This document shows, in pieces, positions 13,978 through 49,652 of a DNA stretch of 55,920 nt. The notes below the pieces were generated by a model. That model worked only from the letters and a program-made list of their open reading frames with translations. It had not been told where the DNA came from and did not search any database. The position numbers and the translations under genes are program-made. Positions within the stretch are counted from its first letter, which is position 1. Every line of letters starts with the position of its first letter. The stretch is from Candidatus Woesearchaeota archaeon (lineage in GTDB: Archaea > Nanobdellota > Nanobdellia > UBA10117 > ARS21): NCBI GenBank assembly GCA_038128845.1, contig JAYPKL010000003.1:1-55920 (forward strand), read 5' to 3'.

Positions 13978-15405
13978 ATGGCTTTAAAAAATAAAAAATC
14001 TAATTTTTCAGAATGGTATGTAGAATCTTTACTTTCAGGAGATTTCATAGATTATTCAAAAGTCTCCGGAGCTTATATCTATAAACCAAATTCATACTCA
14101 ATATGGGAGTCTATACAGACATTTTTAGATAAAAAATTTAAGTCAGACGGAGTAAAAAATGCATATTTTCCATTATTAATACCTGAAAACTTACTTAATA
14201 AAGAATCAAAGCATGTTGAAGGTTTTTCTCCAGAAGTAGCATGGGTCACTCATACCGGAAAATCAAAATTATCTGAACGTCTAGCAATACGTCCAACTTC
14301 AGAAACAATTATGTATGATTCGTATTCCAAATGGATTAGATCTTGGAAAGATTTACCGCTTAGATTAAATCAATGGGCAAATGTAGTTCGTTGGGAATTT
14401 AAGCATCCCACTCCATTTTTAAGAAGTAGAGAATTTTTATGGCAAGAAGGACATTCTGTTTTTGAATCAAGATCTGAGGCAGAAAAAGAAGCTTTTGATA
14501 TTCATTCAATGTATAAAGATGTTTATGAAAAATTACTTGCAATACCTGTATTATCCGGTATTAAATCTGAAAAAGAGAAATTTGCGGGAGCTGAAAAATC
14601 GTTAAGTCTTGAAACAATTATGCCAGATGGTAAAGCAATACAAGCATCAACCTCTCACGAGTTAGGTCAAATATTTTCTAAAGCATTTAATATTAAGTTT
14701 TTAGATAAAAATGAAAAAAAGTCCATACCTTATCAAAACTCATGGGGTATTTCTACTCGAAGTATAGGAATTATGCTTGCAGTCCACGGAGATGATAAAG
14801 GATTTATAATTCCGCCTAAAGTTGCTCAAAATAAAATAGTAATTGTTCCAATATTATTTAAAGGTAAAGAGGCCCCCGTCTTAAAAAAATCCAATGAATT
14901 GACAAAATTATTGAAAAAATATGGAACCATATTGGACGATAGAAATGATGTTTCTGCAGGATATAAATTTAATCATTGGGAAGTCAGAGGAATTCCTTTA
15001 CGTATAGAAATTGGACCAAGAGATTTAGAAAATAAATCTGTAACTATTGTTAGAAGAGATACTGGAAATAAAGAATCAGTAAAAATTAGTAAACTAGAAT
15101 CAAGAATCTCTGAATTATTAAAAATTATTCAAAAAGAAATGTATGAACGAGCTAAATTTAATCTTGATAATTCTATTATTCACGTTGATTCAATTAAGGA
15201 ATTAAAAACAGTCGTAAATTCAGGTAAAATAGCAAGAGCATTTTGGTGCGGTTCAATAAAATCTGAAGAAGAAATAAAAAAATTAACGGGAGCTAAAAGC
15301 TTGACTTGTAATAATATATATGAAAATCCTAAATTCAAAGATAAATCTTGTTTTTTAACAGGAGATAAACCTAAATTTTATGCATATTTTGGAAAAAGCC
15401 ATTAG
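13978..15405 (+). CDS. proS: prolyl-tRNA synthetase, archaeal/eukaryotic type
   Basis: RPTSET, NQWANVVRWE, FLRSREFLWQEGH motifs. Confidence 0.97.
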   Translation: MALKNKKSNFSEWYVESLLSGDFIDYSKVSGAYIYKPNSYSIWESIQTFLDKKFKSDGVKNAYFPLLIPENLLNKESKHVEGFSPEVAWVTHTGKSKLSERLAIRPTSETIMYDSYSKWIRSWKDLPLRLNQWANVVRWEFKHPTPFLRSREFLWQEGHSVFESRSEAEKEAFDIHSMYKDVYEKLLAIPVLSGIKSEKEKFAGAEKSLSLETIMPDGKAIQASTSHELGQIFSKAFNIKFLDKNEKKSIPYQNSWGISTRSIGIMLAVHGDDKGFIIPPKVAQNKIVIVPILFKGKEAPVLKKSNELTKLLKKYGTILDDRNDVSAGYKFNHWEVRGIPLRIEIGPRDLENKSVTIVRRDTGNKESVKISKLESRISELLKIIQKEMYERAKFNLDNSIIHVDSIKELKTVVNSGKIARAFWCGSIKSEEEIKKLTGAKSLTCNNIYENPKFKDKSCFLTGDKPKFYAYFGKSH

Positions 15406-16096: not shown

Positions 16097-17977
16097 ATGA
16101 CACCAATATTAGAACAAGTAATAAACGAGATTCCGAAGAATAAACTCATTACTAGTCAAAACTATGAAGGAGCTAATTTAGTATTATATACTAAAAGCAG
16201 AGATTTTTTCAAAGAAGGTAAATCCGATATAAGAAAATTAGTTGATAAGTTTAAGAAAAGAATAGATTTAAGGGCAGATCAAAATTTACTTGTTGATGAA
16301 AAATCTGCAAAAGAATTTGTCCAAAAATTAGTACCAAAAAGTGCAGATATTACTCAAATTATGTTTGAACCTGCCAGAAGTTTAATGATTATTGATGCAA
16401 GAAATCCTAATGATGTTATTGGTCCAAAAGGATCAATTGCTAAAGAAATAAAAAGAAAAACATTTTGGACACCTCAAATAAGAAGAGATTCAATAGTAAC
16501 TTCAAAAATTACAAATCTTATTAGATCAACATTACATGAAGATTCTAAAGAAAGAAGAAAATTCCTTAATGATGTTGGAAAAAGAATTTACGAATTTAAT
16601 AGATCTAGAAAAAATTCAGAAATGTGGGTAAGAATAAGTTGTTTAGGCGCGACTCAACAAGTAGGTAGATCTGCATTTTTATTACAAACTCCTGAAAGTA
16701 ATATTTTGATAGATTGTGGTATTAATCCGGCAAGCACAAATGAAGACGCTTATCCTAGAATTAATTTACCTGAATTTAGCATTCCCGATTTAGATGCAGT
16801 AGTAATCTCTCATGCACATATAGATCATTGTGGATTCTTACCTTATTTATTTAAATACGGTTACAAAGGACCAGTTTATTGTACTGCTCCAACAAGAGAT
16901 ATTATGGCAATGAGTCAATTAGATATGACATTTATTGCTCTTGCCCAAGGTCAAAAAAATATTTTTGATTCAACCGATGTAAAACAAGTTGTAAAAAATA
17001 CAATATCACTTAAATACGGAGAAGTAACTGACATAACTCCGGATGTAAGATTGACATTACATAACGCAGGACATATTTTAGGTAGCGCTATGTGCCATTT
17101 TAATATTGGAGATGGTTTTCATAATTTTTTATATTCAGGAGATTATAAAGTTGTAGATACCAGAATATTAGATGGAGCAAGTCATGTTTTTCCTAGAGTA
17201 GAAACATTTATGACAGAATCAACTTATGGTAATCCTGAAAGAACTTCTCCGGAACGTGCAAAATCTGAAGCAGATTTTCAAAAATTTGCTAAAAAAATAA
17301 TTGACCAAAAAGGTAAATTGTTAATACCTGTTTTAGGAGTAGGTAGAGCTCAAGAAATTATGATACTTATTGAAGAATTATTTAGAAAAAATAAAATAAA
17401 AGATATACCTGTTTACGTTGATGGTATGGTTTATGATATTACGGCTATACATACTGCGTATCCTGAATTTTTAAGCGAATCATTAAGAGAACAAATCTAC
17501 GCAGGTAAAAGTCCATTTGAAGCAGAATTTTTCAAACAAGTAGGTTCATTTAAAGAAAGAGAAAAGTTAATGCAAGAAGGACCATGTATAATTATCGCAA
17601 CATCTGGTATGTTAGTAGGGGGACCTTCAGTACAATATCTTTCAAAATTACATGATGATCCAAAAAACGGTATTGCTTTTGTTGTTTATCAGTTCCATAA
17701 TAGTCCCGGAGATAAATTACAAAAAGGTGAAAGAAATATTGTTCTAGAGAATGAACAATTAAATGTTAAAATGGAAGTAGAATCATTTTCTTTATCAGGT
17801 CATGCAGTCTTTAATGAATTAATGGACTATATGACAAAATTAAAACCAAGACCTAGAAAAGTTTTAACAGTTCATGGTGAAAAATCTATGACAATAAATT
17901 TAGCAAGAGAGATACATAAAAAATTTAGAATAGAAACTTTAAGTCCAAAGCCAGTAGATGTAATAAGATTAAGGTAA
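16097..17977 (+). CDS. aCPSF1 KH/metallo-beta-lactamase/beta-CASP ribonuclease
   Basis: N-terminal KH region, SHAHIDH, AGHILGS, SGH motifs; conserved position after psmB. Confidence 0.95.
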   Translation: MTPILEQVINEIPKNKLITSQNYEGANLVLYTKSRDFFKEGKSDIRKLVDKFKKRIDLRADQNLLVDEKSAKEFVQKLVPKSADITQIMFEPARSLMIIDARNPNDVIGPKGSIAKEIKRKTFWTPQIRRDSIVTSKITNLIRSTLHEDSKERRKFLNDVGKRIYEFNRSRKNSEMWVRISCLGATQQVGRSAFLLQTPESNILIDCGINPASTNEDAYPRINLPEFSIPDLDAVVISHAHIDHCGFLPYLFKYGYKGPVYCTAPTRDIMAMSQLDMTFIALAQGQKNIFDSTDVKQVVKNTISLKYGEVTDITPDVRLTLHNAGHILGSAMCHFNIGDGFHNFLYSGDYKVVDTRILDGASHVFPRVETFMTESTYGNPERTSPERAKSEADFQKFAKKIIDQKGKLLIPVLGVGRAQEIMILIEELFRKNKIKDIPVYVDGMVYDITAIHTAYPEFLSESLREQIYAGKSPFEAEFFKQVGSFKEREKLMQEGPCIIIATSGMLVGGPSVQYLSKLHDDPKNGIAFVVYQFHNSPGDKLQKGERNIVLENEQLNVKMEVESFSLSGHAVFNELMDYMTKLKPRPRKVLTVHGEKSMTINLAREIHKKFRIETLSPKPVDVIRLR

Positions 17978-18093: not shown

Positions 18094-18669
18094 TTATTGT
18101 AAGTTAGCTTTCCAAATTATAACATCATTTATTGGATAAATTGGTTTTAAATCTTTTTTAAGACCAAAACTTAATTTTTTAATAAAATCGGAAGTAAATA
18201 CTTCGTTATATGTTGATTTTGATAATTTTTTATTAATTAAAGATTCTGAAAATAATCTTAATTCATTTTGTTTTGCTCTAGTAATATTTTCATTTACTAA
18301 AATAACTGTCTTTAATTTAATTGAATTATCATTTTTATCTTTTGTATTAAATACATTCAAAATTCTTGTACTTTTTCTTCTTGAAAATCTAGAAACTTGA
18401 TTATCTGAGGTTTCAATTCCGATGTTATCAGTATATGCAGTATCTCCTTTAACTTGATTTATTTTCAATTTAATTGATACATTTGAATCTCTTGCTGAAT
18501 TAGTTAATGCTTTTAATATAATTGTAATATGTCTGTTTAATAATGATTCTGGATCATATGCCGTAATTCTTGTTATTTCAGTTTCATTATATGCTTTAGG
18601 TCCTAGAACTGGAAACCATCTTTTCTTTCCTTTTCTTAATTTTAATTTTGAATTTTGTTTTTTAGCCAT
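18094..18669 (-). CDS. rps3ae: 30S ribosomal protein S3Ae (eS1)
   Basis: KKRWFPVLGP and KPIYP motifs; follows rps15 as in archaeal operons. Confidence 0.88.
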   Translation of the reverse strand: MAKKQNSKLKLRKGKKRWFPVLGPKAYNETEITRITAYDPESLLNRHITIILKALTNSARDSNVSIKLKINQVKGDTAYTDNIGIETSDNQVSRFSRRKSTRILNVFNTKDKNDNSIKLKTVILVNENITRAKQNELRLFSESLINKKLSKSTYNEVFTSDFIKKLSFGLKKDLKPIYPINDVIIWKANLQ

Positions 18670-18670
18670 A

Positions 18671-19123
18671 TTAATCTATTAATAGTTCTGCAGCCTCCCT
18701 CTTATATTTCCATGTAGCAGGAATTCTGCCATTTGATTGATAATATTTTTGTAATCTTCTTATTTTTGACTCAGTTAAGTTTAGTCCTCTCATACTTGTT
18801 TTATCTTTTTTATTTTTTGACATGTGTTTTGTTATGTTAATTGCTCTTATAACTAAATTTCTTAAATCTTCAGGTAATTTTGAAGTTGATCCACTTTCTT
18901 TCATTAATTCTGTTATTGAACTTCCAGTTATTTTTTTAACACTTGGAACTCCATGTAAATCTCTTAATCTTAACCCAATTAATGCAGAACTTAATCCTTC
19001 TTCAGTCATTGATTTAATTAATTTAAGAACATCAGCTTTAGATGGTAAACCTGTAAGTTTTGTATCTACCAAAGGTTTATTGCTTCCTGATTTTCCTCTT
19101 ACTCTTGCATGTATTCTTGCCAT
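18671..19123 (-). CDS. rps15: 30S ribosomal protein S15 (archaeal uS15/S13e)
   Basis: MARIHARVRGKSGS, LRDLHGVP, ESKIRRL motifs; start corrected to ATG 19123. Confidence 0.96.
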   Translation of the reverse strand: MARIHARVRGKSGSNKPLVDTKLTGLPSKADVLKLIKSMTEEGLSSALIGLRLRDLHGVPSVKKITGSSITELMKESGSTSKLPEDLRNLVIRAINITKHMSKNKKDKTSMRGLNLTESKIRRLQKYYQSNGRIPATWKYKREAAELLID

Positions 19124-19134
19124 CTTATAGCTTA

Positions 19135-19187
19135 ACAAAGTATGATTAGAACGAATTCTGATCAAAGCTCGTAAGAACTAACTTTGT
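19135..19187 (-). promoter_or_regulatory. candidate uS15 r-leader, three-way junction RNA
   Basis: P1 ACAAAGT/ACTTTGT; P2 GTTC-TTAC-GAGC; P3 TGAT.AGAA-TTCG-TTCT.ATCA; starts 29 nt after TTTAAACA at 19216. Confidence 0.6.
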
Positions 19188-19228
19188 CTAATTTCAACTC
19201 AATATTTATGTTTAAAAATGTTTTTATT

Positions 19229-19807
19229 TTAGCTAACTCGATTATATCTTACTCTGCTTTCTATTTTTTTTAATCTATCTAGAACTTCTTTATCAGAATA
19301 TTCTTTTGAAAATATTTTCCATAATTTTCTATAGTTTTTTGAATGTCTGCTGTTCAAACATTCTTTGAACAAATGAATATCTGTTGCTTTATCTTCAATT
19401 CTATCAGTAAATTTACTTAATCCAAAATCAATAAGATAAATATTGTTTTCTTTCACCAATACATTTGATGTTGTTAAATCTCCATGTACTATTCCGTGCT
19501 TATGAAGTAATATTATTTGGTTTGCTAATTTTTTAACAAGGTCAGGTTTTTCTTCTATAATTTCTGAAAGTTTATTTCCATCAATAAATTCCATATAAAT
19601 TTTATTATCCTCTGTTTTGAGAATTTTTGGTACATTAATACCTTCATTATAAGATTTTTTGTATATTTTTTCTTCAGATTTTATTCTTTGTTTTATTATT
19701 TTTTCATCAATTAATTTGTGCCGATATTTTTTATTGATTCTTTCTTTAATTATAATATTATTATCTAGATATATTTTTGCTTCTGCTCCTTCTGAAATTA
19801 GTTTCAT
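19229..19807 (-). CDS. bud32: KEOPS kinase Bud32
   Basis: GAEA loop, HGDLTTSN, IDFGL motifs; start MKLISEG at 19807. Confidence 0.95.
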   Translation of the reverse strand: MKLISEGAEAKIYLDNNIIIKERINKKYRHKLIDEKIIKQRIKSEEKIYKKSYNEGINVPKILKTEDNKIYMEFIDGNKLSEIIEEKPDLVKKLANQIILLHKHGIVHGDLTTSNVLVKENNIYLIDFGLSKFTDRIEDKATDIHLFKECLNSRHSKNYRKLWKIFSKEYSDKEVLDRLKKIESRVRYNRVS

Positions 19808-49549: not shown

Positions 49550-49652
49550 CCCTCTGTAGCTCAATCTGGTAGAGCGCGCGACTGTAGTTGGATACTGGAA
49601 TAAAATTCCAGCAGAAATCGCGAGGTTGCTGGTTCGATTCCGGCCGGAGGGA
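49550..49652 (+). tRNA. tRNA-Tyr(GTA) with 29-nt intron at 37/38 (49588-49616)
   Basis: C1-G72 pair; BHB: CTGT/GCAG 4-bp helix, bulges AG|T and AA|A, outer TGGA/TCCA. Confidence 0.93.

Follow-up and report, generated by a model that had tools for sequence, protein, structure and literature searches.

We identified a conserved structured RNA in the leader of rps15, the gene for ribosomal protein uS15, in a 55.9-kb stretch of DNA (the window) from a marine Woesearchaeota-like archaeon. This leader is one of a real family of conserved RNAs that had escaped cataloguing and that occurs widely among DPANN archaea, and a homologous element lies upstream of uS15 in about 60 loci of Woesearchaeota, Nanoarchaeota, Aenigmatarchaeota and Altiarchaeota. 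The core of the element is a hairpin (hairpin A) followed by a purine-rich tract with the consensus RCCRGRA. Comparative sequence analysis suggests that its most likely role is that of a feedback sensor for uS15.

A conserved leader of uS15 genes in DPANN archaea

Protein patterns dominated by universal uS15 motifs recovered few relatives of the window locus. An alignment of fragments gave the motif DSYG[VI]P..K, with which GTDB genomes were scanned and the regions upstream of the matches read. In Woesearchaeota whose uS15 is approximately 52–55% identical to that of the window, the leaders are recognisably related, and the family consensus consists of a TATA box, a spacer of approximately 25–30 nt and AGGAUAAGYYGGUG-loop-GCUYRCUUAU-RCCRGRA. 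Hairpin A is a 6–7 bp stem, a 1x1 purine mismatch, two further base pairs (G-C and U.G) and a tetraloop. In the window the mismatch is A19179.G19170, the two inner pairs are G19178-C19171 and U19177-A19172, and the loop is UCUU (19176-19173). The inner G-C pair and the G of RCCRG are invariant throughout the family, and the 3' tract is conserved.

The stems of hairpin A are diverse in sequence yet remain complementary, as in AUAAGU/ACUUAU, AUUGCC/GGCAAU, AUAACC/GGUUAU, AUGCAU/GUGCAU, GUAAAC/GUUUAC and AUGGUC/GGCCAU, compared with CAAAGU/GCUUUG in the window. In an alignment of 34 sequences, 93.5% of the cells are paired, a percentage that is inflated because the covariation seed was pre-filtered for 6-bp complementarity, and seven of the nine pairs are altered on both sides. 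Double-change cells number 52, compared with 13.3±3.8 in shuffled alignments (none of 500 as high), and registers slid along the same alignment are only 22–41% paired. The alignment fitted to a covariance model of the family core (R1) is 91.9% paired, with 70 double-change cells against 17.7±4.7 in shuffles. The double-change counts, like the R1 matches outside the seed, are less affected by the pre-filter. Since G.U pairs are frequent, the strand under selection is the sense strand of the mRNA. Alignment of related rps15 upstream regions, the check put forward in the preliminary description of this DNA, thus shows a conserved element whose covariation is strong in hairpin A. Like ribosomal protein leaders in general, it is a conserved, covarying RNA structure in a 5' UTR.

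Searches with R1 gave the same picture with no complementarity filter. Among 80 GTDB loci picked solely by the uS15 peptide motif, 44 contain a match at E < 0.01; all matches are on the uS15 strand, nearly all are directly upstream of uS15, and many are not seed members. In 91 other archaeal uS15 loci (Methanomicrobia, Thermoplasmata, Nitrosopumilus and others) matches occur in DPANN only, namely in Woesearchaeota, in one Aenigmatarchaeota locus and in two Altiarchaeota loci. Further genome and metagenome loci also match. Within the window itself, 19189-19155 is the sole significant match. The leader there has the features of the family: a 5'-terminal hairpin A, the invariant inner G-C pair, the tract, uS15 downstream and the TATA spacing. 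A weak second match in the window (14238-14261, plus strand; 13.4 bits, E = 0.37; AGCAUGGGU.ACUCAUACCGGAAA) is inside a 475-aa ORF and is probably due to chance. Seven records labelled 'uncultured Methanosarcinales' in GTDB (L207, L215, L235, L237, L249, L258, L272) combine a DPANN-type leader with a Woesearchaeota-like uS15, which suggests that they are mislabelled or chimeric bins.

The family comprises short and long forms. In the short forms (L213, L215, L222, L241, L249, L207, L148, L086 and L200) a canonical Shine-Dalgarno (SD) sequence such as GGAGGUGAU, GGGUGA or GGAGGU lies 1–3 nt past hairpin A, and the start codon is 13–17 nt past the hairpin. The position of the RCCRGRA tract is the true SD in the short forms; in the long forms it supplies the 5' arm of another hairpin, P3. 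A hairpin at the P3 position, starting at the RCC of the tract, is found in all long-form members. Long-form tracts (CCAGAA, CCGGGAA, CUGGAGA, and AUCAGAA in the window) are 30–60 nt from the start codon. That the tract is retained where it is unable to serve as an SD suggests that it is part of a recognition site.

The leader in the window and its alternative folds

The minus strand of the window carries, in order, a gene for a Bud32/RIO-type kinase (ending at 19229), a spacer of 105 nt, and the genes for uS15 and eS1/S3Ae. Close matches to the uS15 protein occur in marine and estuarine metagenomes only, at 99, 79 and 74% identity, and the next-nearest proteins, approximately 50–55% identical, are from Candidatus Woesearchaeota MAGs. 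A gene for a KH and beta-CASP (aCPSF1-type) ribonuclease (16097-17977, plus strand) is convergent to the rps15-rps3ae operon, an arrangement kept in relatives. An N-terminal extension of uS15 from an in-frame TTG at 19165 was considered and rejected, as relatives carry a stop codon in that frame. The features of the locus are collected in Table 1.

Table 1. Features of the rps15 leader and its surroundings in the window
Feature	Coordinates	Strand	Basis or remark
Promoter: A-rich BRE-like stretch and TATA box (TTTTTAAA, 19218-19211)	19209..19225	minus	sequence; kept in relatives with 74-99% identical uS15
Predicted transcription start A19189, context UUAG	19188..19190	minus	inferred from promoter spacing
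Family core (covariance model R1): hairpin A and RCCRGRA tract	19155..19189	minus	31.2 bits, E = 8.8e-6, a score for which the window sequence is itself in the seed alignment
Hairpin A: CAAAGUU (19186-19180) with AGCUUUG (19169-19163)	19163..19186	minus	covariation
Natural C/A polymorphism (RNA sense)	19175	minus	loci L092-L097; RNA and DNA contigs, runs X27, X35, X36
AUCAGAA, local form of the purine-rich RCCRGRA tract	19156..19162	minus	alignments; here the 5' arm of P3
P1, ACAAAGU/ACUUUGU	19187-19181 with 19141-19135	minus	sequence
P2, (A)GUUC/GAGC(U), loop UUAC	19179-19175 with 19170-19166	minus	sequence
P3 hairpin, UGAU-C-AGAA/UUCU-A-AUCA	19143..19164 (19164-19156 with 19151-19143)	minus	UUCG loop
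S3, 3' strand of P1 (ACUUUGUU)	19134..19141	minus	pairs with 19188-19181, competing with 19169-19163
Linker, unstructured, A/U-rich, no Shine-Dalgarno match	19124..19133	minus	relatives: not conserved
rps15 (uS15), 150 aa	18671..19123	minus	Pfam PF08069 and PF00312; ATG at 19123
rps3ae (eS1/S3Ae)	18094..18669	minus	Pfam PF01015; ATG 1 nt past the uS15 stop codon

In a set of 58 window ORFs, the TATA-like motif nearest upstream of the ATG most commonly has its start at -28 or -29. Most promoter-proximal genes therefore appear to be leaderless, as had been noted before; for uS15 the motif starts at -95. An SD is present in very few genes of the window, and the rps15 leader has no match to one. 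The TATA spacing of the leaderless genes places the predicted uS15 transcription start near 19189, two bases above the 5' end of P1, and gives a leader of approximately 66 nt. The distances that had been reported for the element are correct: TTTAAACA starts at 19216, 29 nt above 19187, and the 3' end of the element (19135) is 11 nt ahead of the rps15 ATG. Its 5' end is approximately 2 nt below the predicted start.

Contigs from a salt-marsh metatranscriptome cover the leader at the depth of the coding sequence as far as 19171-19174, and the leader is therefore transcribed. The contigs break at this point because of the C/A polymorphism at 19175. One metatranscriptome contig with the A allele runs through the promoter to 19269, and another contig, whose run is of unknown type, stops at 19195.

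The spacing from the promoter is similar in relatives. The TATA box starts 29–31 nt before R1 model position 1 in 28 of 58 loci and 35–37 nt before it in another 15, so that in 43 of 58 loci hairpin A is expected at the 5' end of the mRNA; throughout the family it starts 0–7 nt from the predicted transcription start. Both the relatives and the promoter spacing thus agree with the original proposal of a structured, conserved leader, specific to uS15, that starts at the predicted transcription start. In five loci (L012, L111, L185, L250 and also L193) a segment CAACUUAUCUC is found between the TATA box and the predicted start, approximately 30–40 nt upstream of hairpin A, with 9–10 bp of complementarity to the hairpin A 5' strand (GGAUGAGUUG). 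If transcription began further upstream, this segment would be a third competing partner of that strand.

The preliminary description had drawn the leader as a three-way junction of P1, P2 and P3. All three helices are present on the minus strand, and the junction is both the minimum free energy (MFE) and the centroid structure from RNAfold (-10.6 kcal/mol). The single-sequence fold is only marginally above chance (z = -1.98, with 13 of 200 shuffles as stable), and with flanks included z is +0.47. Conservation in relatives raises it above chance. In relatives with 74–79% identical uS15 the promoter and element are nearly unchanged, and the 11–13 nt before the ATG and the region upstream of the promoter have diverged.

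The three helices fare differently in comparison. P3 consists of an upper stem, AGAA (19159-19156) with UUCU (19151-19148) closing the loop at 19155-19152, and a lower stem, UGAU (19164-19161) with AUCA (19146-19143), beyond a C19160.A19147 mismatch; U19164 and G19163 are shared with hairpin A. Among 11 close relatives, 97.7% of its cells are paired and two pairs are altered on both sides, which bears out this helix within the close clade, and its loop changes from UUCG to UAAUA or UUUA in the relatives with 74–79% identical uS15. P2 as drawn does not hold up: family-wide 75.7% of its cells are paired compared with 73.4% in shuffles (103 of 500 as high), and its inner two pairs are mostly unpaired in the 11 closest relatives. 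The C>A change at 19175, which is within the loop of hairpin A, disrupts the closing C-G pair of P2.

P1 is invariant in the window clade. The S1:S3 duplex has a predicted energy of -8.1 kcal/mol (z = -2.6), and of the 28 long forms 12 contain an S3-like segment whose complementarity to the hairpin A 5' half exceeds that of shuffles, against approximately 1.4 expected by chance. The register of this pairing varies by lineage, and the segment ends 8–14 nt before the AUG. P1 thus has counterparts as a closing helix in approximately 40% of the long-form relatives; however, the S3-like segment is absent in the other long forms and in all short forms. P1 also shares its 5' strand with hairpin A, and the two are therefore mutually exclusive.

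These results bear on the proposal that the leader is a static three-way junction, bound by uS15, that mimics the junction of helices h20, h21 and h22 in 16S rRNA. The junction dominates the predicted ensemble of the window leader (-12.9 kcal/mol compared with -6.7 kcal/mol for hairpin A plus P3, with a P1 pair probability of 0.98), and the conservation of P1 in the window clade and the closing helices of the long forms also speak for it. We count on the same side the Thermus and Geobacillus S15 leaders, in which, as reported, a junction competes with a two-hairpin fold. However, P2 is without comparative support and is broken by the polymorphism. No closing helix can form in any of the short forms or, with these counted, in more than half of the family, and these members nevertheless retain hairpin A, the only helix that covaries family-wide; this helix is excluded by P1. 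The conserved fold is therefore hairpin A and not the three-way junction.

Evidence for rRNA mimicry was sought in the 16S rRNA itself. The strand formed by the 3' side of h21 and the 5' side of h22 in Woesearchaeota and other DPANN archaea, GACUUGGRACCGGGAGRAGUC, has a local likeness to the leader sequence ACUUAU-RCC-GGGAA, which is short and limited to CC-GGGA(A/G) compared with ACCGGGAG. An ungapped position weight matrix (PWM) of the leader S2 and RCCRGRA region did not rank the h21/h22 junction near the top in six DPANN 16S sequences, nor did it do so in any of ten 16S sequences, and R1 with filters off gave no match in Woesearchaeota/DPANN 16S. The scans, made at the level of sequence and covariance model, thus fail to single out the h20/h21/h22 site that the leader had been proposed to imitate. 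Taken with the evidence from the helices, this makes the static junction an unlikely account of the leader.

Relation to known S15 leaders

The comparison with Rfam S15 leaders, which had been suggested earlier, found no family that matches the window leader. With Rfam 15 there is no match at the gathering threshold, and no S15 leader at E <= 10 in 19050-19300; in nine related DPANN loci no S15 leader is matched at E <= 1. The only match of any Rfam family to the leader region, SNORD19B on the opposite strand with E = 5, was read as due to chance. An inspection by eye for C/D box or K-turn features showed neither canonical C/D pairing nor tandem G.A. The library and search method work, since RF03137 (S15-Methanomicrobia, clan CL00121; gathering threshold 42.2 bits) was found upstream of uS15 in the control Methanomicrobia loci L025, L034 and L051 with 44–62 bits.

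Predicted S15 leaders are on record for Halobacteria and Methanomicrobia, where they precede rpsO with recJ and rps3ae and were proposed to mimic an rRNA multistem junction (Eckert & Weinberg 2020, PMC7247131). Archaeal uS15 leaders are thus already a known kind, and the DPANN leader is not the first. No cis-regulatory RNA of DPANN archaea, including a uS15 leader, was found described in Rfam 15 or in the literature that we searched. The novelty claimed for the window leader accordingly holds for an uncatalogued DPANN family and not for archaeal uS15 leaders as a kind.

The DPANN leader and RF03137 are alike in being archaeal multi-helix RNAs of roughly 50–75 nt that immediately precede rpsO/uS15, in some operons together with rps3ae, and have uS15 as the presumed ligand. 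However, the conserved junction nucleotides of RF03137 (GUAAGUCCGACGUG ... UUGGGAUUAC / CUUGGGAUUAC), which enclose two hairpins, are absent from both the window leader and the family consensus. The DPANN core is a 5'-terminal hairpin with an SD-like tract rather than a closed three-stem junction, and the lineage differs. The S15-Halobacteria motif, which partially resembles the Methanomicrobia motif and the rRNA junction (Eckert & Weinberg 2020, PMC7247131), shares the gene context and presumed ligand. There is no match to the clan in the window, and this motif is set apart by the failed model match and by the description in that paper.

Autogenous control of bacterial rpsO through diverse, lineage-specific leaders is reported in work by Slinger et al. 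(2015), as cited in PMC7247131. The window leader has no sequence or model similarity to the bacterial S15 leaders, which include the E. coli pseudoknot (RF00114) and the Thermus and Geobacillus three-way junctions. Several bacterial S15 leaders are reported to alternate between two hairpins and a junction or pseudoknot fold. This toggling resembles the alternatives of the DPANN leader, hairpin A plus P3 as against P1 plus P2 plus P3, although the window mRNA, unlike those of the bacterial hosts, has no SD and its host is archaeal. A stacked G.U/G-C pair in bacterial leaders mimics G666.U740/G667-C739 of 16S rRNA. The corresponding place in P3 is A-U/G-C in the window, G.U/G-C in leaders of the L098, L100 and L265 type and G-C/G.U in the L013 type, and in a Woesearchaeota 16S rRNA (L284) it is seemingly A-U/G-C by our own helix assignment. 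The stacked pair of the bacterial leaders does not appear to be conserved in the DPANN leader.

Possible mechanism and other explanations

We consider it probable, from the comparative sequence evidence, that the DPANN leader is a uS15 autoregulatory leader with hairpin A and the tract as its core and uS15 as its ligand, and that it has two states in the window. The rps15 mRNA would start near 19189 with hairpin A at its very 5' end and RCCRGRA immediately 3'. Free uS15 would bind hairpin A together with either the neighbouring purine tract or the P3 base, and so lower the translation of its own mRNA. In the short forms the bound protein could directly occlude the ribosome-binding site or SD, a logic that is not directly transferable to the window lineage, which lacks an SD. 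There, the S3 segment (19141-19134) may pair with the hairpin A 5' strand, closing a three-way junction. The leader would then have two folds that exclude each other, one of hairpin A and P3 and the other of P1, a shortened P2 and P3. Binding of uS15 probably shifts the balance between them. During transcription hairpin A could form first, although the junction is thermodynamically preferred. A variant in which freed S3 hides the AUG by pairing with the start region was rejected, as the shuffle fraction is at or below 0.05 in only one of 12 members.

A generic 5'-terminal stability or translation element, which protects the abundant rps15 mRNA from 5'-3' exonuclease or tunes initiation and does not sense uS15, appears improbable. 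The short distance between hairpin A and the predicted 5' end family-wide would suit such an element, as would the fact that the 16S scans did not detect rRNA mimicry, but it is difficult to reconcile with the restriction of the leader to uS15 and with a single significant R1 match in a gene-rich window of this size. In addition, the invariant loop-proximal nucleotides and the conserved 3' tract point to specific recognition.

Still less probable is another ligand, whether the downstream-encoded eS1, a ribosome assembly factor or a small molecule. In the window eS1 is co-transcribed with uS15, and by a simple motif test an S3Ae-like gene follows uS15 in 17 of the 55 evaluable leader-bearing loci. 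However, it is not directly downstream in the other 38 (in L193 and L194 uS15 stands alone), and uS15 is the sole constant gene downstream of the family. We therefore rejected eS1 as a constant partner of the leader, and the two-gene rps15-rps3ae operon proposed earlier as the regulated unit does not extend to the family as a whole. A metabolite ligand is disfavored by the core of approximately 35 nt, which is small for an aptamer. In one locus (L239, 1-404) an SD and an ORF other than uS15 (MTDITEKIQ...) come after the leader (32.8 bits), and uS15 starts 368 nt further on; the leader can thus head a longer operon. Finally, chance structure in AT-rich intergenic DNA, for which the folding z-scores alone might have argued, is refuted by the conservation and covariation across dozens of species and merits virtually no credence.

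More tentatively, the uS15 autoregulatory leader can be pictured as a DPANN-wide uS15-responsive RNA switch at the mRNA 5' end, in which one protein-binding hairpin might be wired to lineage-specific expression platforms. If so, the platforms would include direct SD occlusion, pseudo-SD/anti-SD hairpins, and a closing helix in SD-less, mostly leaderless lineages, and the switch would offer a natural handle on the initiation and regulation of leadered, SD-less archaeal mRNAs.

To our knowledge, only a very small number of archaeal cis-regulatory RNAs have been described. The DPANN family, which occurs in dozens of uncultivated species whose genomes are tiny, would add a third and structurally distinct archaeal way of sensing uS15. 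Its modular variants (the short form abutting the SD, the pseudo-SD hairpin and the closing helix) make up a natural series for studying how one RNA-protein contact is coupled to different initiation controls, and how leadered mRNAs that lack an SD initiate translation in organisms whose mRNAs are mostly leaderless. The R1 covariance model could also improve the annotation of DPANN genomes.

Several individual loci show further arrangements. In the long forms L265, L259 and L272 either of two sequences, the pseudo-SD in P3 or a true SD shortly before the AUG, could pair with the P3 3' arm (CUCC/UCUCC), and in L265 and L259 a second, true SD is present. Judged by sequence, this arrangement looks like an SD/anti-SD expression platform. 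In L216 and L223 a 3' segment (AUUCACCAA / UUUCACCAA) is complementary to the apical, loop-side half of hairpin A (UUGGUGAAU / UUGGUGAGA), with a compensatory change between the two, and the pairing is possibly a pseudoknot variant. Elsewhere in the window, the Rfam search called a tRNA of 103 nt at 49550-49652 on the plus strand (54.6 bits) that ARAGORN does not report, and this is probably an intron-containing archaeal tRNA.
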